From the IMG/VR virus record IMGVR_UViG_3300026518_000008, positions 29,164 through 93,163 of that record: DNA of 64,000 nucleotides. One strand, written 5' to 3'. A program made the translations under genes and the position numbers. The notes under the pieces are model-generated. The model saw only the letters and a list, made by a program, of their open reading frames with translations, searched no databases and was not told where the DNA came from. This stretch comes from a virus. Each line of letters opens with the position of its first letter. The stretch's first letter is position 1. Of this stretch, positions 18,398 to 42,990 are shown piece by piece.

Positions 18398-18701
18398 AAT
18401 ACCATTACATCCACTTATCACACCAGGTGACAATCAACACTATAATACTAGGCTTGATGGACAAAATTCTATTCTAGACTTAGAGTTAGAACTTACAGTT
18501 TGCCAGGCTATTGGAGCTTGCCTATGGAACATTCACAAATACTCCACTAGAACAAAAGGTCAGGATGATGCAGATTCTCGTAAGGCTGACAAATACAAAG
18601 AATATCTAGTAGAACTTGATCTGCTTAGTATTGACGGACTTGGATCTTGTAGAGTTATAAAAGCTTGGACTTATGCAGGAAAACAATGGAAATATATTTA
18701 A
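18387..18701 (+). CDS. DUF3310/SaV-like phage protein
   Basis: HY...C..NIHKY..R.KG..D..KA..Y pattern. Confidence 0.6.
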   Translation: MSSKIPLHPLITPGDNQHYNTRLDGQNSILDLELELTVCQAIGACLWNIHKYSTRTKGQDDADSRKADKYKEYLVELDLLSIDGLGSCRVIKAWTYAGKQWKYI

Positions 18702-18712
18702 AGGAACATTAC

Positions 18713-19141
18713 ATGAGAGTTATTATTAACAACGAACATTCAGATAGCGAGATACTACCACCAGAACTGGAGAGTATCATAGGATTTCAATTCGGTGAGG
18801 AAGTAAATATCCCAGTTGCTACATATAACGCTATTTTCAATCTTACATTTACGAATTCAGCTGGAATGCAACAGAACAGATTTAAAATCATAGTTATATC
18901 TATGGATGAATCACCAGAGGAAGTTGAGCAGAAGGCAGAGATAGATGCTGTAACTGCAGCTCAAGAGGAAGAGTTTGAACAGATTGTATTAACTCTTGAC
19001 AAATATGAGGCACTTCTATCAGGAGTTGCTACAGCTCATGCAAAACATGGTATCAGTACAGATTCTGCACCAAATTCTGCTATTGCATTATTTCTTCATC
19101 TAAATTCACCAGAGTTTACTACCTCAGAACCAGAGGAATAG
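18713..19141 (+). CDS. hypothetical protein
   Basis: AAGGA RBS before ATG 18713. Confidence 0.7.
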   Translation: MRVIINNEHSDSEILPPELESIIGFQFGEEVNIPVATYNAIFNLTFTNSAGMQQNRFKIIVISMDESPEEVEQKAEIDAVTAAQEEEFEQIVLTLDKYEALLSGVATAHAKHGISTDSAPNSAIALFLHLNSPEFTTSEPEE

Positions 19142-19144
19142 GAC

Positions 19145-19363
19145 ATGGACTTAATTGATAAAATTCAGGCTAGACGAGATGCGAATGAGATGGACTTTGG
19201 ATCTAAACCAAAGGCTAAACGTAAATCTCCTATTAAAATGGGAGCACAGCATGCTGCTAAGGTAACAGCTGTTAGAGCCGTCAGAGATGCGTTCGGACCT
19301 GGAATTGTTTCTGGTATACTTTCACTTCTTGTTAGAGATCAGATTACTAAGATAGGAAAATAG
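19145..19363 (+). CDS. small basic protein ending in Gly-Lys
   Basis: 72-aa ORF in operon packing. Confidence 0.6.
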   Translation: MDLIDKIQARRDANEMDFGSKPKAKRKSPIKMGAQHAAKVTAVRAVRDAFGPGIVSGILSLLVRDQITKIGK

Positions 19364-19377
19364 CACACTCCTGGTTC

Positions 19378-19577
19378 TGATGGGTTGCAGTAGAAGGCTG
19401 TAATTAAATAGCGTCGCCGACTTAATCGGCGGAGCACCTTGCCCACACTATGTGAGAGATGAGTTATAAGACAGGAATAAAACCGCCTGCAGCTATAAGG
19501 TTCTTAGAAGTTAGCTTATTAAAGTGTAACCGGTCCACTTGTCTCTCATCGCCTGATTCATTTTGCAAAACGCATCA
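19378..19577 (+). ncRNA. putative structured RNA or leader
   Basis: Nested helices, including CGCCGA/TCGGCG (19415-19431) and a 12-bp GTGAGAGATGAG/CTTGTCTCTCAT helix (19452-19463 with 19538-19549). Confidence 0.4.
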
Positions 19578-19632
19578 CAGTCCCGTCCTATATGGACTCA
19601 CATTATATACATACATCTTGAAAGGATATAAT

Positions 19633-20004
19633 ATGTTAAAAGTGAACGAAACACTTAGCATCATGGTTGATGCAAACAAAGACGCTGGAGTTGATTCAGC
19701 AAAAATTATCGCAGGGAATATCCTTAACGATAGAGTGAATACGATTCTTATGAAAAACCTTCCTACTGGCATTAAACTTGTAGCAGGCTCATATCTTGAA
19801 TCTAATGTAGGTAAAGCGATTGTTGCTAACACCGTTGCTGGATTACTTATCCACACTATGCCAGAGAATGAGAAAGTTGCTATTGCCGCTGAGGCGATGA
19901 TTAAATCTGCATCATTAGCACTTGCTAGTTCTTTCAACATCGAAGAAATGATCAACGAGCTTCTTGACGGAGTTCCAGGTCTTACACCAGCTGCAGAGTT
20001 ATAG
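19633..20004 (+). CDS. hypothetical helical protein
   Basis: AAAGGA RBS before ATG 19633 (start moved from 19459). Confidence 0.75.
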   Translation: MLKVNETLSIMVDANKDAGVDSAKIIAGNILNDRVNTILMKNLPTGIKLVAGSYLESNVGKAIVANTVAGLLIHTMPENEKVAIAAEAMIKSASLALASSFNIEEMINELLDGVPGLTPAAEL

Positions 20005-20006
20005 TC

Positions 20007-20123
20007 ATGACTCTCGCAGAACGTCTAGCCGCGAAACAGGCTGAAGCAAAAGCATCAGGTTCAACAGAGATCAAAGTCGTTAAGACTACTTCACTGAAGA
20101 ATAATTCAGAATCAGGTAAATAG
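20007..20123 (+). CDS. 38-aa peptide ending SGK, candidate protein modifier
   Basis: MTLAERLAAKQAEAKASGSTEIKVVKTTSLKNNSESGK; starts 2 nt after the upstream stop and is followed by a terminator; too short for the ORF track. Confidence 0.6.
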   Translation: MTLAERLAAKQAEAKASGSTEIKVVKTTSLKNNSESGK

Positions 20124-20141
20124 CTTTATCTATTTATATAG

Positions 20142-20168
20142 ACCTAGGGTTCTTCCCTGGGTTATTTT
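20142..20168 (+). terminator. rho-independent terminator
   Basis: ACCTAGGG-TTCTT-CCCTGGGT hairpin followed by TATTTT. Confidence 0.6.
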
Positions 20169-20244
20169 ATTCCACACTATTTTTATATATCAACTGATGT
20201 ATTTATTTATTAATATATCATTTTTTATATCAAAGGACACATAT

Positions 20245-21309
20245 ATGTATTTAGTAAAATACTTTAAAGATGAGATAAGACGCAGATATTTTGTTGATAG
20301 TAATAACAATTATGCTGCAAATATGATAGTTGATGAGAGATGTATAGTTTCTACATTATATAGTAGAGATATGGTTCAAAGAGATCACTATGTTATATCA
20401 GAATGGTTTTCTAATAAATATGGAATTAGACAACTTCCATTCAAATTTATGCTTCAGACATTGAATATCAGTGATAAAAAACTAAAATCCCTGGTTCTTG
20501 CAGTGAAACGAAAAAGACTAGAATTTGTTTTTGCAGGATTTGGAGGAACTGGTATGAATACTGCATATTGGTTACAGAAAATTCTTGACCATACAGGAGA
20601 TGTATACTTATTTAATAGCGTACATGTTTACGATGATGACGAGATTGAATTTTCAAATCTTTTTAGATTTCCACAGGATTTATCGTCATGTACAGAGAAC
20701 AAGAAAGCATTTATGTATACTAATAAAAACTCACTTGGTAGAAAGTATTATAAAGTAGCAGATACAATTAAATTTGTAAATCCATCTATTGAATATAGAT
20801 TTGCTAATGTAGAATTATTTGAACACACAGACTATACACATAGACTTTCGTTTGCAGACGATACTATTGTGTATGGAGCACCAGATCTTGCTACTCGAAA
20901 AGATGTTTCTCTTACTAATTGTAGATTCATAGCAGCTACTCATGGGGGAAATTCTTGCTCTATGACAGTACAGCCAGACATTGATGAGAACTTACAGACA
21001 GAGGGATATGGTGTAATACACTTGAACACATTTTTCTGGAATCAACTCGCTATGGCTATTGGACTTTTAGAGTTCCTTGCGGAGGACGATATTCAACAGA
21101 TAGAGACTACTGATATTAATTCAGATGGGACTCCTGTAATGAACCTTGATGGTACTACTTCTACAATACTTGCAGATGTGTCTAAATGGGATCAGGAAGG
21201 GCAAATATTTAAGTTCAGCTTTGAGGATTTTGTTGACTCTGGTTCATTTGGTAAAGCTTCCAGAATTCTTGATTTTAATATTACTAAAGACAATGGAGGA
21301 CGAGTATGA
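20245..21309 (+). CDS. ThiF/MoeB/E1-superfamily adenylyltransferase
   Basis: FVFAGFGGTG nucleotide-binding loop; YDDDEIEFSNLFRF (DxD.vE.SNL.R); VYGAPDLATR (D...R). Confidence 0.85.
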   Translation: MYLVKYFKDEIRRRYFVDSNNNYAANMIVDERCIVSTLYSRDMVQRDHYVISEWFSNKYGIRQLPFKFMLQTLNISDKKLKSLVLAVKRKRLEFVFAGFGGTGMNTAYWLQKILDHTGDVYLFNSVHVYDDDEIEFSNLFRFPQDLSSCTENKKAFMYTNKNSLGRKYYKVADTIKFVNPSIEYRFANVELFEHTDYTHRLSFADDTIVYGAPDLATRKDVSLTNCRFIAATHGGNSCSMTVQPDIDENLQTEGYGVIHLNTFFWNQLAMAIGLLEFLAEDDIQQIETTDINSDGTPVMNLDGTTSTILADVSKWDQEGQIFKFSFEDFVDSGSFGKASRILDFNITKDNGGRV

Positions 21310-22454
21310 TATCATTTCAAAAACAAACAAGCACAATAGATCATGCTATCAAAAACACTGTTTTGGCTAAGTTAAATAGTGTTTTAGAGACATCTATGTC
21401 ACATACAAATCCAGATTTATATAATCCATCATCTAGTCTTGGCAAATCATTGTATCCAGTAGATATGACGCATGGACTTAGTACAGAAATAGGAATGTGG
21501 AGCAATTCCATGAAAGACGAGAGTTCTGTGCTTATTGATGCTATTGGTTCGGATACATTATCTTTTGGACCGGTTACACTGAGCGAGGGATTGTCATTGA
21601 TAAAAAATGAAATTACTTCTGGAACTTTCTATGGTGTAGTAGCTGTTAATAGCTTGACAAATGAACGAATAAATCCACTACATCCACTGATTGCTAAAGA
21701 GATATCTGAGAACTGGGATATTTACAAGGATCAGAAGTTTAATTTTTATATCTTTTCTGGAAATTGGAGGGGAGACCCAGATGCTGACCTTGAGTTATAC
21801 ACAAATAGTATAGTGCAGCTTTTATCAGAATACGGAGAAAGACAACTAATTTCATATGTTTCATCTACACTTGCCGTTGTTAATAATGACATAGAGATAC
21901 CTATAACATCAGATGAAAACGTTCAAGAAATATTGTATAACTACATGGACGGAAAAAGCATAGAATTAGTAGATTCTACATTATTAAAATTACCGAATGG
22001 AAATTCGCCATATTTTATTGTACCAGTGCAAATTGTTAGCGACGGAATTGCTTATCCTTACTATGGAACTTCATTGTTGCAGCAAGACATTCGCAATAGT
22101 GAGGATAGTGAAACAGAAGATCTATGGGGTACAGATTTGTCACCTATGGGATCTGCAAATATTGGAAATAATACAACTAATCCGACAGCATCTGAATTTT
22201 TCTCTGTATGTACTGGAGGACATGGCGTCGACGATTATGGTATGGCTACTATAAATCAGAGCAATCTTCAGTCTCCTATGAATTCTGAATGTTTATCTCC
22301 AGAATGGAGAGAATATGTAGCAGCTTGTCTCAACATTAGCTATGAGATATTTGACTCATTACTAGATTCCACTCCACAAAAAATACTTACTAGAGCAGAT
22401 TTTGATACTATACCAGAATGGTTAGAACATTTATCTACATTACATTTACATTAA
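21306..22454 (+). CDS. putative prokaryotic E2-like conjugating enzyme
   Basis: C-terminal SANI...SVCTG resembles the E2 (H)PNI...VCxG catalytic motif; lies between E1-like and JAB genes with an ATGA overlap. Confidence 0.5.
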   Translation: MISFQKQTSTIDHAIKNTVLAKLNSVLETSMSHTNPDLYNPSSSLGKSLYPVDMTHGLSTEIGMWSNSMKDESSVLIDAIGSDTLSFGPVTLSEGLSLIKNEITSGTFYGVVAVNSLTNERINPLHPLIAKEISENWDIYKDQKFNFYIFSGNWRGDPDADLELYTNSIVQLLSEYGERQLISYVSSTLAVVNNDIEIPITSDENVQEILYNYMDGKSIELVDSTLLKLPNGNSPYFIVPVQIVSDGIAYPYYGTSLLQQDIRNSEDSETEDLWGTDLSPMGSANIGNNTTNPTASEFFSVCTGGHGVDDYGMATINQSNLQSPMNSECLSPEWREYVAACLNISYEIFDSLLDSTPQKILTRADFDTIPEWLEHLSTLHLH

Positions 22455-22466
22455 AGGATTGTACAC

Positions 22467-23750
22467 ATGGCTTATCATATAAATACATCTAGACACAACG
22501 CTACTCCAACTCAGAAGAATGCATCAGTTTGCTCTGTACCAAAGTATGACTTTGTAGGAAAAATTCACACCACATCTACTGGTGATCTTTTTGGAGTGCT
22601 TTTACTACAGCAGGAAACTCTTGACGAGATATTCGAGCAGAGCGGACCACTTGCTGTATCGAATGAATTTCAGTTCCACTATACATCATTAGTTGGGAAA
22701 CTTCAGAACCAGGGGCAGGAGCTCTATATTAGTATTCCACTTGTATGTTACAACTACAAACAGACGGTATCTGGAGCTCACATTGGATTCAACCTTGAGG
22801 ACACTGAGACTATGTCAGATGATACTCTTGAGATCGCACAGATGAAGGCTGCAGAATTTCTTAGTACAGATACTCGTACTCAGATAGAGTCTATCTTTGG
22901 AGAACTTGATTGGCATGTTGCTACACTACAGACTATGCACAGACATCCAGGAGGTTCATCTCAGGGATTCTCAAGTACAGATCTTATGACAGATCCAGAC
23001 AGAGCTGGAATTGTATTTCCACTTAATGAGTCTATTGAGAAATCTATCAGTTTTTCATCTATTATGTATGTGCAGAATGGATCGTGTAGACTTGCTCATA
23101 CTGAGGTTCGTACTGCACTTGGTTCAGCTTCAGAGAAGAGTGGAATACTATACAGCAATGGTAGATCTATTACTATTGTTGCTGGATATGATTCTACGCC
23201 TACAGAGCTTGATACTATGTTTGGCATACCTGGATACACATCTACAGATACTGTATATTTTGATGACATGCCTACCACTACAGATATACCTCAGCAACTT
23301 ACATCTATAATGAGAGAGTCCTCTTTTAGGCCAGAGATATTTATTGATGAAAATCATTTATCCACTGAGACTACTTACTATGGGAAGCAGAGAAAACCTT
23401 TGATTAAACAATCAGAATTTACAAAATCCACAGATAGCTTTCAAAATACTAACCAGCTGAGCTTATTTAGTAGAGGACTTGAAGATGACATCGTATTTGA
23501 TCAAGATGAATTATATGAAGATTATATAGATCCATTAGATCAGGATTCATCTGGAATGTATACACAAAATCCATTTGAGCTTGATCATATGGACAGAGAG
23601 ATACTTACAGATGCACTTAGAGATGAACTTGCAGATATTACATATTGCGGAACCAAGAGTCATGTTTTCACAGAACGAGAGATTGCTCTCAAGCCTGAAC
23701 ATGAGATCTGGAGATTATCCAGAACTCACAAATTACTAAAACCACTATAG
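22467..23750 (+). CDS. JAB/MPN+ metallo-isopeptidase
   Basis: N-terminal NEF glutamate plus HRHPGGSSQGFSSTD (HxHP...FSxxD) at 22938-22982; long acidic C-terminal tail. Confidence 0.85.
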   Translation: MAYHINTSRHNATPTQKNASVCSVPKYDFVGKIHTTSTGDLFGVLLLQQETLDEIFEQSGPLAVSNEFQFHYTSLVGKLQNQGQELYISIPLVCYNYKQTVSGAHIGFNLEDTETMSDDTLEIAQMKAAEFLSTDTRTQIESIFGELDWHVATLQTMHRHPGGSSQGFSSTDLMTDPDRAGIVFPLNESIEKSISFSSIMYVQNGSCRLAHTEVRTALGSASEKSGILYSNGRSITIVAGYDSTPTELDTMFGIPGYTSTDTVYFDDMPTTTDIPQQLTSIMRESSFRPEIFIDENHLSTETTYYGKQRKPLIKQSEFTKSTDSFQNTNQLSLFSRGLEDDIVFDQDELYEDYIDPLDQDSSGMYTQNPFELDHMDREILTDALRDELADITYCGTKSHVFTEREIALKPEHEIWRLSRTHKLLKPL

Positions 23751-23760
23751 GACATATATT

Positions 23761-24651
23761 ATGGCTACAACATTTCAAACATTGTATGGTTCAGATGATT
23801 TGTTTTTTACACCAGAACACCAATTTGGTATACGACGTTCAGAATTAGCTGATGCAACATCTAATTCTGATACAACTACAGAAAATACATCTATTCCTGA
23901 CCCAATTGATACTAACCAATCAGAACCAGGTGAGATGATTCCGTATGACACTTCACGAGATATTACATCATTGATTACAGAATTTCATGATCATCATGAC
24001 AGGCTAGAAGGTGATGCATATGTATTTGATGCAGAGATGCTATCAAATACTAGACTCCAGAATTTCCTTATGACTATTGATCATAGGGCTAGACCAGAAC
24101 AGAGAAAGATTACTATGCCAGATATGAGCAGAATTATTGAGCATGGGCTATCTATGATTGTAGATGGATATGATCAACTTGAGTATAGAGACTGTTCTAA
24201 AGTATTTCATTTTAATAACGGAGATGTACTGCTCAGAGTATCTGGATTCATCAATAGAGCTACTGAAACTATTGAAATTATTCGTTATACGAAGAAATTC
24301 AAAGTAGACCGCATGATTGATGATGTCCAGGCAAGACGAGTATTTGATTATTCGTTATATGCATCAGCATTTCTACTAGCATCAAGATATCCAGCTATTG
24401 GAACTATGATTAAAACAATTCATGAGCATTTTGGTGAATTTCATATCACTGAGCATTTCCCGTATATATCCAGCAATAATACTATTGAGTCAATACTTGA
24501 GGCATATATATCTGATATCAATTCTGGAGAATTGCCACCAGAGTGCGAGGACAAATGGACCACTCGGGCTGGAGTTAATTCTCGTTGTGAGAAATATTGT
24601 TCAGTTAAAGATATTTGTCCATTTTACACTCCTACTCACGCTGGTTCTTAG
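23761..24651 (+). CDS. divergent Cas4/PD-(D/E)XK-like protein, possibly inactive
   Basis: IIEHG, VSGFIN, IIRYTK in place of the catalytic motifs; C-terminal PPEC...RCEKYCSVKDICP cysteine cluster. Confidence 0.5.
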   Translation: MATTFQTLYGSDDLFFTPEHQFGIRRSELADATSNSDTTTENTSIPDPIDTNQSEPGEMIPYDTSRDITSLITEFHDHHDRLEGDAYVFDAEMLSNTRLQNFLMTIDHRARPEQRKITMPDMSRIIEHGLSMIVDGYDQLEYRDCSKVFHFNNGDVLLRVSGFINRATETIEIIRYTKKFKVDRMIDDVQARRVFDYSLYASAFLLASRYPAIGTMIKTIHEHFGEFHITEHFPYISSNNTIESILEAYISDINSGELPPECEDKWTTRAGVNSRCEKYCSVKDICPFYTPTHAGS

Positions 24652-25151
24652 ATAGTACAGCTGGGTGTCGTTTCAGTCGACTTCTTAAGTAGAAAGTGTT
24701 CTCCCCAGCACATGTATTAATTCATTTGCGAGATAATATTCGTATCCTGCTTAGTGTGCGTGGTAGATACACAGAGCATTTTTCCATTTGGCAACTATTT
24801 ACCATTTGGAAGAACACTACAGAACCAGAGTGATGATCATCCCACAGAGAACTCATAGGAGTTTTGTTTGGGTCGATTCATATCAGTCCCTCTAACCTTA
24901 GACAGGAAGAGAAAAGAATATGCGTGTTTAGTATCAGAATTTATGCGTTAAGAAAACTGAGATGTTAATTTGTGATATTGAGTTGTAACTGCAAAACAAA
25001 AATATTAATTGGGAATATTTATATTACTAGAACGAGTCAGTGTGGCATTGCGTCTACACATACAATTCTAGTCTCCAGAAAGATGCCCAGCTGGAGTAGC
25101 GATATGAGTCTATTTATATATACTTAGTATTCGCTATATATTTTTATATAT

Positions 25152-25229
25152 GTCTCAGCTAAACCCACACCTTATTTAAACATAGGATGGATAGCTTACT
25201 GGCAGTGCAAGTCTGTCCTGAGTACACCA
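25152..25229 (+). ncRNA. degenerate tRNA-like element
   Basis: T-arm GGCAG-TGCAAGT-CTGTC, then CTGAGTAC-ACCA, partly complementary to GTCTCAG at 25152; no recognisable D or anticodon arm. Confidence 0.35.
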
Positions 25230-25454
25230 AAGTCTTAATATATAATCTATTCTTGCAGAATACAGATACAACTAAACTGATTATATTTGTGGTAGTAGTA
25301 TGCCGTGAGAATATAAAATATTGCCAATATTAATACTGCTATTAAGTTTTTAGTGTAACAACACGCCTATAACTATAGAACATGAATCATTAGCTTACAC
25401 ATTGGTAAATCGGATCGGTATTTGTGGAACCAAGATTTCCTAAGGAGTGCATCC

Positions 25455-25540
25455 TTGTAGTTAAGACACTGGTTCGAGTCCAGTATGGTTCTCTATAAAC
25501 ACTTTATGTACCATTAGCTCAGTCTGGTAGAGCACTGTTT
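25455..25540 (+). tRNA. tRNA-like halves W (3' half, then 5' half)
   Basis: T-arm ACTGG-TTCGAGT-CCAGT plus ATGGTTC (25468-25491); downstream GTACCAT-TA-GCTC-AGTCTGGTA-GAGC (25508-25533); acceptor strands pair 6 of 7; no encoded CCA. Confidence 0.35.
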
Positions 25541-25546
25541 CTATTA

Positions 25547-25706
25547 GTATAGAACGACGGTTCGAATCCGTCCGGGCCCACCATATGTGCCATTAAATTT
25601 GTATCGGTAGCATTATACGCGAGATAATTCGCAAAGGACCAGAGTTCAATTCTCTGGATGGCACACCACATTAGGGCCCGTAGCATGAGCGGTTCATGCA
25701 CTATAC
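25547..25706 (+). tRNA. permuted tRNA-like gene X (3' half 25547-25583, 5' half 25674-25706)
   Basis: Acceptor CGGGCCC-ACCA pairs 7/7 with downstream GGGCCCG; anticodon-stem strands GTATAG and CTATAC pair 6/6; anticodon not identifiable. Confidence 0.55.
25587..25668 (+). tRNA. atypical tRNA-like gene Z with 13-bp acceptor plus T helix
   Basis: GTGCCAT/ATGGCAC-ACCA; T-arm CCAGAG-TTCAATT-CTCTGG; non-canonical inner hairpins and no clear anticodon. Confidence 0.5.
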
Positions 25707-25764
25707 ATAATTTATTTTAAAAACCAGTGACTAGTATATACAATAGACTTAGCACCATAACCAA

Positions 25765-25840
25765 GTTTTAGGTCGGAAGTTCGAGTCTTCCATCGGGCGC
25801 CATTTATATGCCCGATTAGCTCAGTTGGTAGAGCAGAAAT
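25765..25840 (+). tRNA. permuted tRNA-like gene Y (3' half 25765-25802, 5' half 25810-25840)
   Basis: GTTTT-AGGTC-GGAAG-TTCGAGT-CTTCC-ATCGGGC-GCCA, 7-nt spacer, then GCCCGAT-TA-GCTC-AGTTGGTA-GAGC-A-GAAAT; acceptor pairs 7/7, anticodon stem 5/5 with two G-U pairs. Confidence 0.6.
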
Positions 25841-25852
25841 TTAAACATGAAT

Positions 25853-25895
25853 TACAGGGACAAATACGGTATATTTTGTCCCTGTACCTTTTTTT
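25853..25895 (+). terminator. rho-independent terminator closing the tRNA-like cluster
   Basis: 12-bp perfect stem TACAGGGACAAA/TTTGTCCCTGTA followed by a T run. Confidence 0.85.
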
Positions 25896-25948
25896 AGAGA
25901 ACTCACGGAGTTTTCTCAAATTAGGTACAGCACAATAAAGGAATTAGA

Positions 25949-27241
25949 ATGAGACAAGATATAGAGGAACGCATTAATGCTACTAAAGTTCCATACAAAA
26001 TATATGCAGAGTTTGTCGAAGACAAAGCTGCAGAACAATTTGCAAATTGCCTAGAGCAGGAGTCTGTAGTGCAAGGAGCTCTCATGCCAGACACACATGC
26101 CGGTTACGTTGCACCTATCGGTTCTGTACTAGCTACAAATGGTACTATTTTCCCATCTTTCGTTGGATACGACATCGGATGCGGCATGAGCTCTATCCGT
26201 ACTAATATCCAATACAAATCAGTCTCAACAGAACAACTAGAGGCTATTAAAAATCAGATTCTTAGAGATATTCCTATTGGTTTTGAGAGACATTCTAAAC
26301 CTAAGACACATATCGTAGAAAGATTTCCTATGACACCTTTTGCAAAGGACGTGTTACGCACCACTGGTTCTTATCAGTTAGGCACACTTGGCGGAGGGAA
26401 TCATTTCCTTGAAATAGGATATGACAATGACGAATATTTAAATATAGTTGTTCACTCAGGTTCGCGTGGTGTTGGACATAAAATTGCCACTAAATATATG
26501 AAAGAGGCTGCAATTCAATCAGTAGACGAATCTAGATATAGAAAAGAATTTGATGAGAAAAATAAAGCTTGGCTAAATAAAATTTTAAACAGCAAATCAT
26601 CTCCAGCTAATGACAAATTACAGGATAGATACGACAAAGCTAAAACTGAATTTACTTATCGTCGCACCAGAGCTAGAGTATCGAATATTGAGGATGCGTA
26701 TCCATTAGATAACACATCAGAACCAGGGATGGGATACATGCAGGATATGAACATGGCATTGGAATTTGCTTTAGAGAATAGAGAGCTAATGATAGGTAGA
26801 TCAGTAGCTGCTATTGCTAAAGTTCTTGGCCAGGATATTTCTACTTCTCGCTTTATCAATCGAAATCATAACCATGCAGAACTAGTAGATGGTAGATGGA
26901 TACATCGCAAGGGAGCCACTCAGGCTGCAGATGGTATGATTGGAGTTATACCAGGAAACATGGTAGATGGCTCGTTCATAGTTAGATGTAGAGGTAGCTC
27001 AGATTCTATGAATTCATCATCTCATGGAGCAGGTAGAGTTTTATCTAGACGAAAAGCCAAGGATACTCTTGACCTAGAGGAGTTTATTTCTAGCACAGCT
27101 CACCTAATAGCGAACCATTCTGATTCAAACCTAGACGAATCTCCACTTGCATACAAAAATATTTTTGATGTAATGGAACAGCAGTCAGACTTGGTTAAGA
27201 CACTAGACAGAATTGTACCAATTATAAACATTAAAGGGTGA
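25949..27241 (+). CDS. rtcB: RtcB RNA ligase
   Basis: MPDTHAG, VGYDIGCG, GTLGGGNHFLE, HSGSRG, HNHA, HRKGAT, SHGAGR, DESPLAYK, C-terminal NIKG. Confidence 0.97.
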   Translation: MRQDIEERINATKVPYKIYAEFVEDKAAEQFANCLEQESVVQGALMPDTHAGYVAPIGSVLATNGTIFPSFVGYDIGCGMSSIRTNIQYKSVSTEQLEAIKNQILRDIPIGFERHSKPKTHIVERFPMTPFAKDVLRTTGSYQLGTLGGGNHFLEIGYDNDEYLNIVVHSGSRGVGHKIATKYMKEAAIQSVDESRYRKEFDEKNKAWLNKILNSKSSPANDKLQDRYDKAKTEFTYRRTRARVSNIEDAYPLDNTSEPGMGYMQDMNMALEFALENRELMIGRSVAAIAKVLGQDISTSRFINRNHNHAELVDGRWIHRKGATQAADGMIGVIPGNMVDGSFIVRCRGSSDSMNSSSHGAGRVLSRRKAKDTLDLEEFISSTAHLIANHSDSNLDESPLAYKNIFDVMEQQSDLVKTLDRIVPIINIKG

Positions 27242-27245
27242 AATT

Positions 27246-29303
27246 ATGATAGACAACAGAATAGAAACAATTACACATACGAACGCACCAATCCAGGATT
27301 TTAGTATAGCAATGAACGCAAGCATGTTTCAGATGTTAACAAAAAATGTTTACACCAATGTTATTGCTGCAGTAATCAGAGAATGGAGCACCAATGCTAT
27401 TGACGCATGTATTGCAGCTGGAGTTTCACCACGATTTGATGTACATCTTCCTACGATAGCATCACAAGTTTTTTCAGTTAGAGATTTTGGTACTGGTCTA
27501 TCATCAGATGATGTACACGGACTGTTTTCAGCTCTTGGAGCATCTACAAAACGTGAGTCAAATCAATATAACGGTACTTTTGGAATTGGCCGTATGGCTG
27601 GACTAGCATACACTGATATGTTTACTATTGAATCATTTTTCAATGGAACATTATCTACATATGTTGTATCTATACAAGATGGAATTCCGAATATGATATC
27701 TATCAATGATACAGATACAGATCTTCCAAATGGAATGAGATTATCTATTGATGTTAGAGAGTATGATATAGATAGGTTTACTAGTGAAGCTAGAGATATA
27801 TATCAGTATTTTGACACTAGACCAGATACGAATATCCAGCTTGAATATCAAGATTATTCATCAAATCTATCAGGAGATGGATGGTACATTATTAATACAA
27901 ACGTTAGAAATTACAATCTTAATTTAGTTATGGGAAATGTTTTATATACTGTATCAACATCGCAACTTAATAAAGAAGCTAGAGATGTTCTTGAAATACA
28001 TGGCTTAGTGCTAGATGTACCTATTGGATCCGTATCTATTACTCCTGGTAGAGAATCGTTGAATCTTGATAATACTACTATTACATATTTAAACAATAGT
28101 TGCAAACATGTAATAGATCAATACGAAGAACAGTTGACTAATTTAATATGCAGTTTCGACAAAGACTTTGACAAAATTATTGCATATAGCAAATATATAA
28201 CAAGGCTTGGATGGAACTTGCAAAATAGATTTAAAAATATTAGTATAGACTACAGCACACTCTATGTTAAAAACAACTGTTTGCGTTCAATAAATATGGA
28301 AGTAGGTGTGTATTATTTTAAAAATGGATTTAAGAATATTAAATCAGTAAATGAATATATACACATAACGAATAGCACTATATTCTGCATTGCAGATACA
28401 AGAATACATATTGTTGAATCTATTAAAAAATATCTATTAGAAACAAATAATAATTTTGTAGATGTATATATAGTAAAGCCAAATAGGTGGAGTAGTGATC
28501 CAGAGGACATTAAGTCTCATGTTCAATCATCTATAGAATTATTTGATGAAATTGGAATAAAGAATTACTTTAAAACATCTGACTACTCAGTGGAGAATAT
28601 ACAACGCAAGAAGTCAGGTAAAATTTCAACTATAGATTTCATGTTTGAAAACAAATATGATACAGAACCTATATCTAAAAAAGGAGTAGAGATATTATCT
28701 ATAGATACTGGACCATTCTATTATATAGAAACTTCTGGATTTAAACCTATTAGTATGACTCCAGATGAATTATCATTGCATATGAGAGCTGCTAAATTTT
28801 ATGATAACATAAATTCTACAAATACACGAATAGTTGGTGTGCCAAAATCAGCATTACGAAATACTGTTGATGACGATAGATTCATTCCATTGGCTGGAGC
28901 ACTTGATGATATATTTTCAGAAATGACTATGCCTAAATATTTTAACGATATTGGACATGAGAATTCGTTTATCCTATATGATAACAGAATACATAGATAT
29001 ACAAATCTAAATTTGCCAGATGAACTTATTGAGTTTATTACTGAGCACAAAAAATTCTTTGAACAAAACAGACAATGTATATTACCTGCAAATGCTGTTG
29101 GGATTAAGGATAGATTTGGATGCAATGTATCATCTCCTAATTCTAAGTTGTCACTTGAGGACGTGATGGAGAAATATCCATTATTTATGTATATACTTGA
29201 TACATTCTATAGAGATGGTTTGTATTTATCTATGGAACAGATAGAAAACTATGTACAGACTATATATGAAGCAGGAGACGAAGATGAGCAAAATGACCAA
29301 TAA
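27246..29303 (+). CDS. rIIA: rIIA-like protein (GHKL ATPase N-terminus)
   Basis: IREWSTNAIDA, VRDFGTG, STKRESN...GTFGIG, PGRESL. Confidence 0.85.
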   Translation: MIDNRIETITHTNAPIQDFSIAMNASMFQMLTKNVYTNVIAAVIREWSTNAIDACIAAGVSPRFDVHLPTIASQVFSVRDFGTGLSSDDVHGLFSALGASTKRESNQYNGTFGIGRMAGLAYTDMFTIESFFNGTLSTYVVSIQDGIPNMISINDTDTDLPNGMRLSIDVREYDIDRFTSEARDIYQYFDTRPDTNIQLEYQDYSSNLSGDGWYIINTNVRNYNLNLVMGNVLYTVSTSQLNKEARDVLEIHGLVLDVPIGSVSITPGRESLNLDNTTITYLNNSCKHVIDQYEEQLTNLICSFDKDFDKIIAYSKYITRLGWNLQNRFKNISIDYSTLYVKNNCLRSINMEVGVYYFKNGFKNIKSVNEYIHITNSTIFCIADTRIHIVESIKKYLLETNNNFVDVYIVKPNRWSSDPEDIKSHVQSSIELFDEIGIKNYFKTSDYSVENIQRKKSGKISTIDFMFENKYDTEPISKKGVEILSIDTGPFYYIETSGFKPISMTPDELSLHMRAAKFYDNINSTNTRIVGVPKSALRNTVDDDRFIPLAGALDDIFSEMTMPKYFNDIGHENSFILYDNRIHRYTNLNLPDELIEFITEHKKFFEQNRQCILPANAVGIKDRFGCNVSSPNSKLSLEDVMEKYPLFMYILDTFYRDGLYLSMEQIENYVQTIYEAGDEDEQNDQ

Positions 29304-32356: not shown

Positions 32357-35137
32357 ATGAGCACTTTTACTTTACGTCCTCACCAGCAACATGCTGTAGA
32401 TGAAACAATTGCAGAACTTGCATTTGGATCATCTGAGGTAGTTATTGATGCACCGACATCTTTTGGGAAAGAGCAACCATATACAGAGCCTGTTCTTACT
32501 CCAGATGGATTTATCCCGATGGGTCAGCTTTCAGTTGGCAGCAGGGTTATTGGTTCAGATGGGCAGCCAATCCTTATCACTCATATACATGAGCAGGGAT
32601 GGAAAGATGTGTACGAGATATCATTTCGAGACGGTAGCTCAGTACGTTGTGGACTTGATCATTTATGGAGAATATCTAAATATGAGAAGAGACAGCAGGA
32701 TGGCATTTCAGAGTCATATTTGAAGTATGACACGAAATCTATTTCAGAATTGTTGAATTATTCAGAGAATTCCCAGCGTAGATTTTTTGTAGATTTACCT
32801 TCTCCTGTTCTCACTGGGCACAGTGATTTACCTATTGACCCATATGCACTTGGATTATTGCTTGGAGATGGATCTTTTACATGTAGCACTATTGGTTTCT
32901 CAAATAGAGATGAGCATATCATAGATGCACTTTTTGATGCTATTCCTTCCAGAGACAAACTTGGATATATAGGTTTTAGAGACGATGGATCTAAGGTTGA
33001 TATGAATATTATCAGCAGAACATCTGGAAAGACCAGGAGCGATACTTCACTTATTCTTGAGTCACTAGAATTGCTTGGAAAGAAGTCTACAGAGAAATTT
33101 ATTCCAAATCAGTATATGACCTCTTCATATATAGATCGTATGAAATTACTACAGGGTCTTATTGATACAGATGGCCACTGGCAGACAGGCACTCTGAATG
33201 AATATTCATCTTCGTCTAGAGAGCTTGCATATGGAGTAGTTGATCTAGCTAGAAGTCTTGGCATATATGTTACTATATCAGACAGAATCCCGGTCTTTAA
33301 AGATACGAATGGACAGAAAAAGAATGGTTCTAGAAATTATAGAGTATTTTTAAATTTTGCTCGAACCAAGAAATCTATTATATCTATTAGATCGTTAGGA
33401 TACAGAGAGAATAGTAGATGTATTACAGTGGATAGCACAGATCACCTATATATCACTAAAGATTTCACACTTACCCACAACTCGTCAGTAATTGCTGGAC
33501 TTTGTCGAGATATGGATGCAGAGGATATAGTTATCCTTGTCAATATTACAGAGCTTATAGATCAGATAGCTGAGCACTTAGATTATTTAGGACTGAGTTA
33601 TTCTATCTTGAAGGCTGGACGAGAGTCAGAGTTTGTACACGGATCACGTATACATATTGCTATGTCTCAAACATTGTTTTCACGCATTGACAAGATTGAC
33701 TTATCTTGTGATGTCATCATACAGGATGAGGTTCACAAGGAGTTTTCTACGAATCGCACGCAGACTATTCTTGACAAATTACAGCCTGATTCTCGTATTG
33801 GATTATCAGCTACACCATACGATGCCAAGAATTTCAAACTTGGAGATTCTACTATTATACAGACATTATCTGTTCAACAGTTGCAGGATGATGGATATTT
33901 AACACCAGTAAGATATTTTATTCCTAAATGGTCAGAGCAGGTTGATTATTCGTCAGTTAAATCCACAGGAGCAGACTATACTATATCAAAACTAGATGAG
34001 AAAATTGCTACTCATCAGCATATAGAGCAGTCATTACGTTCTATGAACTTACTCGATGCAAAATCGAAGAAAACTATTGTCTTCTGTTCATCTATAGAAC
34101 AGTGTGAGTTAGTTACAGCAGCCATGAGAGCAGATGGATATGCAGTTGAGCAGGTTCACTCTAAACAGAGCAAACAGGACAATGAGAATATCATTTCAGC
34201 TTTCAGAGATTGCACATTATATACACCTGGAGTTAAGGCCAGACAAAATGATGCAGAGCGAACACTATTTGAACAGGATAACATTCACTCTGGTTCTGAG
34301 GTGTCAGCACTAGTATCAGTGTCAAAACTTTCTACAGGTTTCGATGTCAAGGATATTCAGCTTGGAGTATTGATGAGACCTACTAAGGTATTATCTCTAT
34401 TTATCCAGCAGGTAGGTAGGCTAATTCGTACAGCACCAGGAAAAAAATATGCAGAATTATTAGATCTTGCTCAATGTACATCCAGATTTGGATTTCACAC
34501 GACACAGTTTACTCCGCTGGAGCATTCTGGAAACATAGATCTTGATAGAACACGCAAATTATTATCTGACTCAGAGATGGAACTCAAACATCTTGCTCAG
34601 ACTCTACCAGATGATGGAGATGAGTTACAGGAATTTGATTTTGAGAAATACGCACTCAGTATTCAGAAACTAGCTGCCAAAGAGAAATTGCTTCTTGAGA
34701 AAAAGAACGATATAACTACTTGGACTATGAAAGAGTTAGCCTCAACTTATGACTACACTGATAATATACAAACAGTAATTGCTATTGGTGCAGAGATTTA
34801 TACACGCAAGTTTGGATCTCCTATATCTAAGAAGGGATATGCATATAGCTATGATCCAGAATGGATATCAGAAGGAGCATTAGTCGCATTCTCTAAATAC
34901 CCAGAAAAGAAGAGACAGTGGCTCAAGGCTTACAAGACTAGGTGTCGCAATATTATTAAGCAGGAGAAGAATTTCAATTCGTTGAAATTCTTTATAGATT
35001 GGTTAGTTGAGAGATACGAATCAGAGCTTATCCGATATGAGACAGATGACTATACAGATACATCAACACCTCAGAACCAGAGCTATGGATATCTTCCACC
35101 AGCTATTGAGATTGATGATGATGAGATTCCTTTCTGA
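32357..35137 (+). CDS. superfamily 2 (DExH) helicase with intein
   Basis: LRPHQ, APTSFGK|S, DEVH, GLSATP, GFD, QQVGRLIR; C-terminal DDDEIPF tail. Confidence 0.92.
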   Translation: MSTFTLRPHQQHAVDETIAELAFGSSEVVIDAPTSFGKEQPYTEPVLTPDGFIPMGQLSVGSRVIGSDGQPILITHIHEQGWKDVYEISFRDGSSVRCGLDHLWRISKYEKRQQDGISESYLKYDTKSISELLNYSENSQRRFFVDLPSPVLTGHSDLPIDPYALGLLLGDGSFTCSTIGFSNRDEHIIDALFDAIPSRDKLGYIGFRDDGSKVDMNIISRTSGKTRSDTSLILESLELLGKKSTEKFIPNQYMTSSYIDRMKLLQGLIDTDGHWQTGTLNEYSSSSRELAYGVVDLARSLGIYVTISDRIPVFKDTNGQKKNGSRNYRVFLNFARTKKSIISIRSLGYRENSRCITVDSTDHLYITKDFTLTHNSSVIAGLCRDMDAEDIVILVNITELIDQIAEHLDYLGLSYSILKAGRESEFVHGSRIHIAMSQTLFSRIDKIDLSCDVIIQDEVHKEFSTNRTQTILDKLQPDSRIGLSATPYDAKNFKLGDSTIIQTLSVQQLQDDGYLTPVRYFIPKWSEQVDYSSVKSTGADYTISKLDEKIATHQHIEQSLRSMNLLDAKSKKTIVFCSSIEQCELVTAAMRADGYAVEQVHSKQSKQDNENIISAFRDCTLYTPGVKARQNDAERTLFEQDNIHSGSEVSALVSVSKLSTGFDVKDIQLGVLMRPTKVLSLFIQQVGRLIRTAPGKKYAELLDLAQCTSRFGFHTTQFTPLEHSGNIDLDRTRKLLSDSEMELKHLAQTLPDDGDELQEFDFEKYALSIQKLAAKEKLLLEKKNDITTWTMKELASTYDYTDNIQTVIAIGAEIYTRKFGSPISKKGYAYSYDPEWISEGALVAFSKYPEKKRQWLKAYKTRCRNIIKQEKNFNSLKFFIDWLVERYESELIRYETDDYTDTSTPQNQSYGYLPPAIEIDDDEIPF
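32471..33481 (+). mobile_element. class 3 intein with LAGLIDADG homing endonuclease (337 aa)
   Basis: Starts EQP (no Cys/Ser1) and ends THN|S; WCT triplet (HLW, RCITV, YIT); LGLLLGDG and LQGLIDTDG. Confidence 0.92.
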
Positions 35138-40440: not shown

Positions 40441-42990
40441 ATGGCACTTACCACAGAACAACAGGACGCGGTAGATTTATTCCAGCATCCAGATACCAAG
40501 ATTTTACTTATTGATTCGGTAGCGGGATCTGGTAAACAGCAACCACTTACATCTCGAATTCTTACTCCATCAGGATGGACTACTATGGGAGATATCTCTA
40601 TAGGAGACATTATATCTAGCCAAGACGGTACTACTACGGAAGTAACACACATTCATCCTCAGGGGTTAAATCGAGTATATGTAGTTCATTTTATGGATGG
40701 CACTAGCGTAGAGTGTGGAGACAATCACATATGGAAGGTTTGGTCTATCCATTCACAGAAGTATTTAGAGCTTACTACTACAGAGCTAATGTCTAGGAAA
40801 CTGAAAGCAGTCAGTAGATCTTATATATACAGCACACCTCTTCCAGAGCCAGTGGAGCATCCAGAGCAGGATTTTCAGATTCATCCATATTTACTTGGGG
40901 CACTTATCGCAGATGGAGGCCTAGCAGCGAAACAGATCACTTTTCACACTAGTACAGAGGATAAATCTTTTGCATTAGAGAAAATTGGTCCATTACTGCC
41001 AGACGGAGTATCATTTGGATTATTTACTCAGACAAGCGAACATGGATATTCATATCGTATCAGACAGCCTATGCGAGATATTATCTCAGAGCTAGAGCTC
41101 AATGTATATTCCAGGGATAGATTCATTCCTGATGAGTACCTATTTTCATCTATTCAGCAGAGGAGAGACCTTCTTGCCGGACTAATGGATGCAGATGGAT
41201 CAGCTTCTTTGGGACGAAACAGAGTCACGTATTCTACATCATCTCTCCGACTAGCACAGGACATCATTAGCTTAGTCCAATCGTTAGGAGGATTAGCTAA
41301 ATTTGGGAAACCGGACTTTAGGAAATCTAATCCAAACTATACTGTATCGATTAAATTCAATTCATATAACCCATTCACATTACCTAGAAAGCGTGATAGA
41401 ATTTCACCTAGAATTCAGAATAGAGCGAAGAAATCTATCGTCAGCATAGAGGAAACTGATCGTTTTGTTGAGCAACAGTGTATCACCGTAGCTAATCCAG
41501 ATGGGTTATATATTACAGATCACTACACAGTTACTCATAACTCCTATACCTTAGAGGATATCGCAGCATTACCAGAGGTTAACTCAGGAATATGTATTGT
41601 TTACAACAAATCAGTTGCTGACGAGAATAAACTTTCTTTTCCATCTTATTTTCAGTCATCGACTATTCATTCACTTGCCTATCAGCACACGGTTAGAGCT
41701 TTTGGACTATCAGTTGGATTCTTCAATGCACGTGATGTTAAAGAGAAAGTCAGGTGGGAATACAAATCTGCTACAGTAGAGGCATTGCGAGGATTTTGTC
41801 TATCTAGACATCTCAAAGTTTCAGATTATTGTAGTGAGCAGCGTATAATTCCAGTAGTAGAGGACATGGTTACGAAATATATCAAACTCATGAAGGATGG
41901 TAAAATCCCAGCTACTCATGATTTTTATATGAAATATTTTCATATGCTTCTTGCGAATAACATTATACAGATTCCAGAGGTAGATGCATTGCTTCTTGAC
42001 GAATGTCAGGATAGCTTTGCTACTACTATCGAGATATTTAAACTTATTCCTGCTAGGAAAAAAGTTGCAGTTGGAGATCAGAGACAGGCATTATATTCCT
42101 TCAATAATTGTATCAATGGTTTCGAGGTGCTTGAGTCAGAACCAGGGGTGAGACTTTCTAATCTTACGAAGACTTTCCGAGTGAACGATGATGATGCACA
42201 GCTAGTACAGGATTTCATGCGACGACATTTGCATCAGCCAGACTACAGCTTCCGTGGGAATCATTATGATGACACAACTATCAAATCTAGAGCATTTCTT
42301 ACGAAGAACAATTCTGCCCTTATTGGGAAAATGATTGATCTTATGGACGAAGGTAGAGGCTTCAACTTATTGAGACCACCGAAGGCTATATTTGAACTTG
42401 TTATTATAATGCTTACTCTGAAACGTGGAGGTTTTATTCCGAATCCTGAGTTTAGACATTTACAGGACGATGTAGATGTGTGGTATGGATCAGAGTCTAT
42501 ACATATTGATTATAGATCTCCTATCGCATATATCGCCAGCATTCATAGCGATGATATACCTATTAAAACTGCAGTTAGACTTATTGCTGAGCATGGAGCG
42601 AAGACTATTTTTAAGGTATTTGACTATGCCAAACGTCAGTATGGTACGAAGAATCATGAGTGGACGCTATCTACCGTATTCACATCTAAGGGATTTACTT
42701 TTGACTATGTAGAGATCTCAGATGACATGAATATGGCTTTTGCTAAGGCTTATACTGAACATCATGAAGGGAAATTGTCAGAGTCTGGATTCAATGATAT
42801 ACTATATCAATACTATGTTATATGCACTAGACATCGTCATGAACTCATAAATGCAGTACATCTAGGAGGAGAGATTCCTTCTACCACAGATTACTATTTA
42901 CCCGACCTCGCATCTGATCAGAACCAGGAGGATGAGGATACTACAGATTCACAGTTTGCCAATGTTTTGGCCAATTTTCATTCAGTATAG
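40441..42990 (+). CDS. superfamily 1 (UvrD-like) helicase with intein
   Basis: LTTEQ, VAGSGK|S, TIHSLA, LDECQD, VGDQRQALY, LTKTFR, SKG.TFD, YVICTR. Confidence 0.92.
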   Translation: MALTTEQQDAVDLFQHPDTKILLIDSVAGSGKQQPLTSRILTPSGWTTMGDISIGDIISSQDGTTTEVTHIHPQGLNRVYVVHFMDGTSVECGDNHIWKVWSIHSQKYLELTTTELMSRKLKAVSRSYIYSTPLPEPVEHPEQDFQIHPYLLGALIADGGLAAKQITFHTSTEDKSFALEKIGPLLPDGVSFGLFTQTSEHGYSYRIRQPMRDIISELELNVYSRDRFIPDEYLFSSIQQRRDLLAGLMDADGSASLGRNRVTYSTSSLRLAQDIISLVQSLGGLAKFGKPDFRKSNPNYTVSIKFNSYNPFTLPRKRDRISPRIQNRAKKSIVSIEETDRFVEQQCITVANPDGLYITDHYTVTHNSYTLEDIAALPEVNSGICIVYNKSVADENKLSFPSYFQSSTIHSLAYQHTVRAFGLSVGFFNARDVKEKVRWEYKSATVEALRGFCLSRHLKVSDYCSEQRIIPVVEDMVTKYIKLMKDGKIPATHDFYMKYFHMLLANNIIQIPEVDALLLDECQDSFATTIEIFKLIPARKKVAVGDQRQALYSFNNCINGFEVLESEPGVRLSNLTKTFRVNDDDAQLVQDFMRRHLHQPDYSFRGNHYDDTTIKSRAFLTKNNSALIGKMIDLMDEGRGFNLLRPPKAIFELVIIMLTLKRGGFIPNPEFRHLQDDVDVWYGSESIHIDYRSPIAYIASIHSDDIPIKTAVRLIAEHGAKTIFKVFDYAKRQYGTKNHEWTLSTVFTSKGFTFDYVEISDDMNMAFAKAYTEHHEGKLSESGFNDILYQYYVICTRHRHELINAVHLGGEIPSTTDYYLPDLASDQNQEDEDTTDSQFANVLANFHSV
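40537..41541 (+). mobile_element. class 3 intein with LAGLIDADG homing endonuclease (335 aa)
   Basis: Starts QQP and ends THN|S; WCT triplet (HIW, QCITV, YIT); LGALIADG and LAGLMDADG. Confidence 0.92.

Follow-up and report, generated by a model that had tools for sequence, protein, structure and literature searches.

A short peptide gene linked to an E1-like gene in uncultured phages is a candidate precursor of a protein modifier

The peptide gene and the genes that follow it

The IMG/VR record IMGVR_UViG_3300026518_000008 is a 93-kb virus sequence that is approximately 85% complete. We analyzed a stretch of 64,000 nucleotides (nt) from this record (positions 29,164 to 93,163), called the window here and used for all coordinates, with a focus on a short open reading frame (ORF) at 20007-20123 on the plus strand. 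A preliminary description of this DNA had proposed that the ORF encodes a minimal protein tag that is handled by enzymes encoded just downstream. The ORF is present with the sequence quoted in that description and encodes a peptide of 38 amino acids (aa) ending in Gly-Lys. The peptide has an amphipathic, helix-like N-terminus followed by a Thr/Ser-rich middle and the C-terminal sequence ...SLKNNSESG, which ends with the glycine that is invariant among its relatives (Gly37); a one-residue Lys tail and a TAG stop codon come next. The 93-kb record contains one copy of this gene. It is surrounded by a phage replication and nucleotide-metabolism module that includes genes for a ThyX-like protein, RtcB, helicases with LAGLIDADG inserts, a primase, and ribonucleotide reductase. 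Neither the peptide nor the products of the four downstream genes (20245-24651) are found at threshold in Pfam, PHROG, PADLOC, or NCBIfam.

The start codon of the peptide gene is located 2 nt past the TAG stop codon (20002-20004) of a 123-aa gene at 19633-20004. This spacing makes translational coupling to the upstream gene plausible, as had been claimed, though the Shine-Dalgarno sequence before the window peptide is weak. Most homologues of the peptide gene have AGGAG-type sites 6-10 nt before the ATG, and pairwise ratios of nonsynonymous to synonymous substitution rates (dN/dS) range from 0.09 to 0.74. These two observations indicate that the ORF is a real, translated gene under selection.

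Past the stop codon of the peptide gene, a terminator scan and folding identified a hairpin and U-rich run at 20141-20173 on the plus strand that is probably a partial terminator or a 3' stabilizer. It is formed by a 9-bp hairpin (20141-20163) followed by UUAUUUUAUU, and the hairpin has a folding energy of -15 kcal/mol (z = -3.0 compared with shuffled sequences). Where a terminator had been placed between the peptide gene and the enzyme genes, there is a stable hairpin with a U-run.

The next gene (20245-21309, plus strand) is predicted to encode an E1-like adenylating enzyme that is 354 aa long when counted from the ATG at 20245. Alignment of 16 homologues (alignment A1) showed that G98, G100, G101, N138, R141, and C238 are invariant. 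The nucleotide-binding loop GxGGxG is present as GFGGTG and the arginine-finger motif SNLxR as SNLFR, with both N138 and R141 invariant. The AlphaFold model of the protein has a predicted local distance difference test score (pLDDT) of 85. Foldseek matched this model to ThiF (best E 8.5e-6), MccB, UBA7, Uba4, PaaA, Cap2, and Atg7. VIA-align ranked the Enterobacter Cap2 E1 domain first (183 residues aligned with Z 11.0 and a root mean square deviation (rmsd) of 3.4), and MccB and ThiF had Z scores of 9.5 and 9.4; 196 chains were found at Z >= 8 and the best 50 rows all belonged to the E1 superfamily. These comparisons of the predicted structure show that the product of 20245-21309 has the E1 adenylation-domain fold.

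Sequence searches gave a different picture of the same protein. The Pfam ThiF profile had no match in the window protein and was sub-threshold in three of 16 homologues (best E 0.0069), and sequence and profile searches of the PDB found no E1. Searches of GenBank phages with the E1-like DNA and protein found nothing, and the same was true of a single-sequence pattern search of IMG/VR. Judged by its sequence, the E1-like protein is a very divergent branch. Many of its distant homologues (L003, L008, L013, L015, L021, L022, and others) reach 480-686 aa because their N-terminus is extended by 130-330 residues. The window protein lacks this extension, in which no family was recognized.

Overlapping the stop codon of the E1-like gene is the start of a gene (21306-22454, plus strand) encoding a 382-aa protein with a large insert that, from alignment A3 and a structural model, is a candidate E2-like carrier. 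Across the 18 homologues in this alignment the invariant residues are N123, H126, P251, Y253, G254, N285, C302, G304, and S323, with C302 in the sequence SVCTG. The model (pLDDT 74) has an order of elements that fits a UBC domain with an insert of approximately 180 residues. Most of the top rows in structural searches were UBC E2 chains, which matched weakly in both Foldseek (E 0.27-1.8) and VIA (Z 3.2-4.2 over 93-124 residues, rmsd 3.6-5.5). A wide VIA search with the whole model reached a best Z of 4.8, with a long N-terminal helix dominating the rows, and the sole clear structural relative is an uncharacterized phage protein in BFVD. No hidden Markov model (HMM) family in Pfam, PADLOC, or NCBIfam matched the 382-aa protein, and sequence and profile searches of the PDB were empty. 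The Prok-E2_B reference set came from one genome alone and was too small for a profile comparison.

The third gene of this set (22467-23750, plus strand) is predicted to encode a 427-aa protein that is a candidate processing and deconjugating peptidase based on a JAMM/JAB motif and alignment A2. The JAMM site is formed by E67 ... H158-x-H160 ... S169-x-x-D172, of which E67, H158, H160, and D172 are invariant and S169 is nearly so. The spacing from HxH to Ser is canonical (x7) in the homologue from L006 and one residue longer in the window protein. The Pfam Prok-JAB profile was sub-threshold in three of 18 members (best E 0.013), and PDB sequence and profile searches found nothing. Scores in the ESM Atlas were approximately 0.8, which is chance level, and the model was unusable (predicted template modelling score 0.20). 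Our assignment of E2 and JAB roles is an inference drawn from motifs and from weak similarity of structure. Thus, of the E1/E2/JAB set named in the preliminary description, the E1 fold was borne out, while the E2 and JAB assignments are weaker than claimed, the former coming from a weak likeness to UBC and the latter from a motif alone.

Conservation of the peptide and its linkage to the E1-like gene

A protein search with the E1-like protein yielded 15 further homologues with 31-83% identity. Pattern scans seeded by alignment A1 led to nine viral, 24 metagenomic, and one metagenome-assembled genome (MAG)-binned loci, which we labeled L0xx. All of these loci are from uncultured, probably related phages, with one contig binned with a Sulfurimonas MAG. 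Throughout the loci, tblastn showed that the gene order E1, 382-aa protein, and JAB-like protein is kept, and gene calling with clustering revealed an ORF of 36-54 aa immediately upstream of E1 in locus after locus. We built a profile from 12 of these short ORFs and searched it against the six-frame translation of all loci. The peptide ORF was found upstream of E1 in 26 of 26 distinct loci with upstream DNA, plus the window. In this count, L034 was added by inspection, and L006 and L020, which are one contig, were counted once. Each locus with enough upstream DNA had exactly one copy of the peptide at this position, and the loci that lacked the ORF all end at or inside the E1 gene. Among peptide-bearing loci, identity between the E1 proteins is only about 31-52%.

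The peptide profile was also used to search 1.84 billion protein sequences, each representing one 50%-identity cluster of approximately 15 billion proteins. This yielded 85 clusters at E <= 1e-3, nearly all of which were 36-50 aa long and aligned end to end. With 26 of 26 loci and 85 profile clusters, the occurrence of a short ORF beside E1 is far beyond chance.

The order of peptide and E1 was never broken even though the neighboring genes change (DUF7566C, F5/F35, F14, tRNA, reverse transcriptase, nuclease). The gene before the peptide encodes DUF7566C, the C-terminal domain of DUF7566, in the window and in L036, and F5/F35 proteins or a protein of 176-206 aa elsewhere. In L009, genes for the 72-aa protein, DUF7566C, and the nuclease are located downstream of the JAB-like gene and the peptide stays before E1. 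This arrangement and the varying upstream gene indicate that the peptide is tied to E1 and not to its upstream neighbor. In L013 and L015 there are 278-417 nt between the peptide ORF and E1. The peptide ORF is a real gene on which purifying selection acts and which is strictly linked to E1. Separately, we observed a tRNA-like gene, judged by its fold and T-arm sequence, between the peptide and E1 at L010:1737-1861, L011:6671-6795, and L034:438-531.

The preliminary description had named the lack of a conserved short ORF, or of a C-terminal Gly, in homologous loci as evidence that would speak against a tag; both were found to be conserved instead. Just two residues are invariant in an alignment of 21 peptides (alignment A4), namely the initiator Met and a Gly that corresponds to Gly37 of the window, and the residue before this Gly is almost always Ser. 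The family shares a plan in which the N-terminal part is amphipathic, the middle is rich in Thr and Ser and includes a short, strand-like V-x-V element, and the sequence K-x-K-S-x-S-G and a tail come last. The commonest unit endings are KSGSG, TSKSG, and KSKSG. A tail past the SG was present in 79 of 79 single-unit forms. Its length was one residue in 37 forms, two in 7, three in 23, and 4-12 in the other 12, and its first residue is highly variable (Asn in 6 of 79). Three of the clusters contain head-to-tail precursors made of two units (P0019), two diverged units (P0065), or three diverged units (P0022), and in each of them the next unit begins right past the SG of the preceding one. An invariant Gly, an obligatory but unconstrained tail, and concatenation are what is expected for a precursor that is cut by a peptidase to expose a C-terminal Gly.

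A further two-unit ORF at L019:269-499 was not counted as evidence since it has no ATG and its units are near-identical in DNA, which may point to a duplication of recent date or to an error of assembly. An identical hairpin sequence (GTCACTGCGGTGAC) is present on both sides of this ORF.

Hairpins were also a feature of the related loci. A GC-rich hairpin starts 3-20 nt past the peptide stop codon in approximately 19 of 22 loci, and the sequences of these hairpins are unrelated between loci. The hairpin is therefore conserved in structure and position and not in sequence. This conservation in most loci lends support to the earlier suggestion that the peptide would be produced in excess over the enzymes. 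In such a role the hairpin would set the peptide-to-enzyme stoichiometry, with the peptide transcript made, or stabilized, in excess over the enzymes.

The family resembles ubiquitin-like proteins (Ubls) in having a conserved Gly in the C-terminal region, a tail past it, tandem precursors, and linkage to an E1, where the cleavage itself is predicted. Its members differ from them in size: at 36-54 aa they are below the size of the beta-grasp fold, which makes this fold impossible, and the peptide has no match in Pfam. A true Ubl gene elsewhere in the genome was the other finding that had been named as counting against the tag, and the ThiS, ubiquitin, and Prok_Ub profiles had no match in the 93-kb record.

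Other candidate substrates had been suggested, and their C-terminal ends are not conserved in homologues. The 72-aa ORF at 19145-19363 was rejected because its Gly-Lys end is lost in the homologues from L036 and L009. The NGGRV end of the E1-like protein was rejected as well; its GG occurs in the four closest homologues only, and about 20 other C-termini are unrelated to it. We also considered F5/F35 as the true Ubl and rejected it because it has no conserved C-terminal Gly and is absent in the window, L036, L004, L013, and L015.

A possible modifier pathway and its alternatives

Taken together, these results lead us to lean, by a modest degree, toward the 38-aa ORF being the precursor of a short, non-beta-grasp modifier in an operon with an E1-like enzyme, a Cys-containing protein, and a JAB-like protein. 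In this model, the peptide would be made in excess because the hairpin past its stop codon attenuates read-through into the enzyme genes. The JAB-like metallopeptidase would cut past Gly37 so that the Lys tail is lost and, in the tandem precursors of relatives, the units are parted. The E1-like enzyme would then adenylate the exposed Gly carboxylate, and the acyl group would pass to a thioester on Cys238 of E1, on Cys302 of the 382-aa protein, or on both. Transfer to an amine on a host or phage target would follow, which the JAB-like enzyme may also reverse. In this scheme the chemistry is inferred at each step, as are the target and the roles of the E2-like and JAB-like proteins.

A broader proposal is that uncultured large phages encode a complete ubiquitin-style system formed by a modifier, a protease, an E1, and a Cys carrier, in which a non-beta-grasp tag of about 37-45 residues, made from single or tandem precursors, would be joined to proteins of the host or of the phage in the course of infection. 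We advance this proposal tentatively and rate it as falling just short of probable.

Several observations weigh against a modifier. The 382-aa protein is only weakly E2-like (Z <= 4.2, Foldseek E >= 0.27) and has no canonical HPN motif, with its invariant N285 (in SANI) located 17 residues before the Cys. The JAB assignment depends on one motif, and an hhalign comparison with 23 bona fide Prok-JAB proteins gave a probability of 0.6% with 19 motif columns aligned only. None of the enzymes passes any curated HMM threshold, and neither a target nor an E3 could be identified. The loci are from related phages, so part of the synteny could come from common descent, and with the record about 85% complete a Ubl could be encoded in the missing part.

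Among known systems, type II CBASS (cyclic oligonucleotide-based antiphage signaling system) offers the closest comparison for the E1-like protein. Cap2 acts on the C-terminus of cGAS/CD-NTase, which has a non-ubiquitin fold with a single conserved Gly/Ala and a variable penultimate residue, and Cap3, a JAB, cleaves a linear cGAS-cGAS fusion at the conserved C-terminal residue (PMC10097602). The phage operon is similar in having a putative E1/E2/JAB-type set and a candidate substrate that lacks the ubiquitin fold, and among solved structures its E1 model comes nearest to the E1 domain of Cap2. The idea of a peptide modifier gains from this match, since Cap2 is known to activate a substrate whose fold is not that of ubiquitin. 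There are also clear differences. The phage modifier would be a free peptide of 37-45 residues rather than an enzyme's own tail, its Gly is never terminal in the primary product, and the E1 and the Cys protein are encoded on separate ORFs, unlike the E1-E2 fusion of Cap2. The system is phage-encoded and not part of a host defense island, and its operon contains no CD-NTase or effector and no gene with a match in PADLOC, Pfam, or NCBIfam. Because there is no CD-NTase, the phage system is not CBASS.

Bil and Bub operons combine genes for E1 and E2 enzymes with one for a peptidase, of the JAB type or another, and one for a modifier whose C-terminus has to be exposed by cleavage (PMC10557695; PMC11601596), and Bub uses oxyesters (PMC11601596). 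One of the best matches to the structural model of the phage E1 is a bacterial E1-E2-Ubl complex (8tyz/8tz0; Z 10.2-10.4). By contrast, the modifiers of Bil and Bub are folded beta-grasp Ubl domains, and HMM searches with PADLOC and NCBIfam revealed no relationship between these systems and the phage operon. Lacking a beta-grasp modifier, the phage system is not Bil or Bub.

Polyubiquitin and Ubl precursors have, as here, head-to-tail units and extra C-terminal tails, with each unit ending at the Gly that is to be activated. Basic residues occur a few positions before the Gly in both cases, as LRLRGG in ubiquitin and K-x-K-S-x-S-G in the phage peptide. Unlike ubiquitin, the phage units are 36-50 residues long, have no beta-grasp fold, and carry a single Gly after Ser instead of Gly-Gly. 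Pup is a small and probably mostly unfolded modifier, as the phage peptide might be; it ends in GG-Q/E and is ligated via the side chain of the glutamate by glutamine-synthetase-like enzymes of the PafA/Dop system. The phage family differs from it in ending with S-G and a variable tail and in being encoded with enzymes of the E1, JAMM, and Cys-protein types; with no GG-Q/E end, the peptide is not Pup.

We weighed four other explanations for the peptide gene. One is that the peptide is the precursor of a natural product of the ribosomally synthesized and post-translationally modified peptide (RiPP) type, or of a conjugate with a nucleotide, lipid, or small amine, so that the E1-like enzyme activates its C-terminus and no protein is tagged. 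RiPPs also have multi-core precursors. MccA/MccB (microcin C) and PaaP/PaaA (pantocin A) pair a short ribosomal peptide with an E1-like enzyme, and the model of the phage E1 fits MccB (Z 9.5), PaaA, and AclA about as well as it fits ThiF. MccB is described as natively activating the C-terminus of a peptide (PMC11118369), and the study of cGAS conjugation leaves non-protein targets open (PMC10097602). The weak E2-like assignment of the 382-aa protein is a further point in favor of this explanation. Against this, MccB chemistry needs a C-terminal Asn in MccA (for succinimide-mediated N-P bond formation) and pantocin A internal Glu residues, whereas the conserved residue in the phage peptide is a Gly followed by a disposable tail; with no C-terminal Asn, the system is not microcin C. 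MccA/MccB and PaaP/PaaA produce an antibiotic that is exported, and they work without a JAB or an E2-like partner. No exporter, immunity, or tailoring genes were recognized in the phage operon with Pfam, PHROG, PADLOC, or NCBIfam. An invariant-Cys protein and a JAMM protein fit a thioester relay and an isopeptidase better. We regard a natural product or a non-protein conjugate as unlikely.

Equally unlikely, in our view, is that the peptide is a small phage protein with a function of its own, such as a host-takeover factor, that sits beside the E1 operon through shared ancestry. The large phage contigs that carry the loci do appear to be related, and the surrounding genes for replication and nucleotide metabolism are similar. 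However, the neighbors vary and the order of peptide and E1 is unbroken. The invariant Gly, variable tail, and head-to-tail repeats are also what is predicted for a substrate that is C-terminally processed and activated.

Sulfur transfer is a less probable function than either of these. The peptide would in this case be a sulfur carrier whose tail is trimmed by the JAB-like protein and whose Gly is adenylated by E1 to form a thiocarboxylate that donates sulfur, comparable to ThiS/MoaD-JAB-E1 systems. Prokaryotic gene clusters with a Gly-ended small protein, a JAB, and an E1 have been tied to sulfur transfer, with the JAB proposed to free the C-terminus (PMC1779556), and the E1 fold of the phage protein is equally close to ThiF (Z 9.4). 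However, the length of 36-54 aa rules out a beta-grasp fold, no rhodanese, desulfurase, or sulfur-acceptor enzyme was recognized nearby, and known sulfur-carrier systems have no place for the extra conserved Cys protein.

Least probable is a leader peptide whose translation, with the hairpin, controls read-through by attenuation and whose product has no function: a short ORF, a hairpin within 3-20 nt, and an operon downstream do have the anatomy of an attenuator, but it is the amino-acid sequence of the peptide that is conserved (dN/dS < 1; the Gly is invariant although its distance from the stop codon varies), multi-unit forms exist, there is no run of a single regulatory codon, a search that was not exhaustive found no alternative anti-terminator pairing, and the ORF is parted from E1 by a tRNA-like gene (L010, L011, L034) or by gaps of 278-417 nt (L013, L015).

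Based on these comparisons, the modifier precursor is the explanation that we prefer. The phage system resembles a ubiquitin-type pathway in its predicted working and is a member of no curated family. In ubiquitin-type chemistry, an E1 adenylates a C-terminal Gly and a thioester relay follows; to our knowledge, its substrates up to now are beta-grasp modifiers or, in CBASS, an enzyme's tail. No paper describing a peptide modifier in a phage E1/E2/JAB operon turned up in the literature covered, which did not include subscription journals. If the proposal is correct, this would be the first case in which E1/E2-type enzymes use a free, unfolded peptide as the modifier, and phages would have a counterpart of the bacterial Bil, Bub, and CBASS systems. 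It would also mean that the ubiquitin fold is dispensable for tagging and that a gene-encoded peptide of about 40 residues is enough, a minimal tagging system that could be used as a tool for ATP-driven peptide ligation. This raises the question of what a lytic phage gains from tagging, which might be host takeover, shielding from ubiquitin-like defenses, or control of its replication module.

Neighboring genes and other features of the loci

The 123-aa gene upstream of the peptide (19633-20004, plus strand) encodes the C-terminal domain of DUF7566 alone (Pfam DUF7566, E 2e-22), and its link to the system is uncertain. It is homologous to the C-terminal third of a 332-aa T5-like left-end gene located beside A1/A2. 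Full-length, 332-aa DUF7566 homologues occur in 476 phage records and are approximately 34% identical to the product of 19633-20004. Before this gene, at 19364-19632, there are 270 nt without a credible ORF, with a GC-rich inverted repeat near 19413-19436; this gap is probably a terminator plus promoter region. An intron or split gene in the gap was rejected because alignment with the T5-like homologue begins at the Met of the 123-aa ORF and the ORFs upstream of the gap show no similarity. Rfam gave no match.

The DUF7566C gene is the last of a three-gene block that also encodes a protein of 114-158 aa and a Lys-rich protein of 68-72 aa (window 18665-20004; L009:10837-12627; L036:2989-4180). 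In the window and L036 this block precedes the peptide gene. In L009 it is downstream of the JAB-like gene and is followed directly by a Cas4-like nuclease gene. A functional link between the block and the operon is conceivable, with its products serving, for instance, as targets or adaptors. Read-through of the TAG codon from 18665-19141 into 19145-19363, which are in the same frame in the window, was rejected because the frames differ in L036.

F5/F35 proteins of 80-114 aa are the products of the gene next upstream of the peptide in many loci (L023:5966-6301, L025:3824-4078, L003:5540-5785, L006:6491-6748, L007:6192-6461, and L014:3243-3512). These proteins have an amphipathic helix and a Lys-rich linker like the N-terminus of the peptide, followed by a small alpha/beta domain. 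Their helix may be a docking element shared with the peptide, or the proteins may themselves be targets.

Downstream of the JAB-like gene, the window encodes a 296-aa relative of Cas4-like PD-(D/E)XK nucleases with a C-terminal Cys cluster (23761-24651, plus strand). The assignment comes from BLASTP, in which the protein matched (E 2e-5) an L009 protein that itself matches PDDEXK_1. This nuclease-like neighbor is probably outside the tagging system. In nine loci (L005, L007, L008, L021-L025, and L027) the JAB-like gene is directly followed by one for a small reverse transcriptase (247-331 aa), and the one at L008:10436-11185 matches Pfam RVT_1 with an E value of 4.9e-20. A Cas4-like nuclease is nearby instead of the reverse transcriptase in the window, L036, L004, and L009, with other genes between nuclease and JAB in L004 and L009. 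After the reverse transcriptase or nuclease come genes for a UvrD-like helicase and a DNA polymerase of family A.

Farther along the window, 24658-25950 contains approximately 1.25 kb without ORFs upstream of rtcB, in which ARAGORN and Rfam had no match. LAGLIDADG homing-endonuclease domains are present in the ResIII/Helicase_C and UvrD-like helicase genes (window 32357-35137 and 40441-42990), and this suggests that these helicase genes contain inteins.

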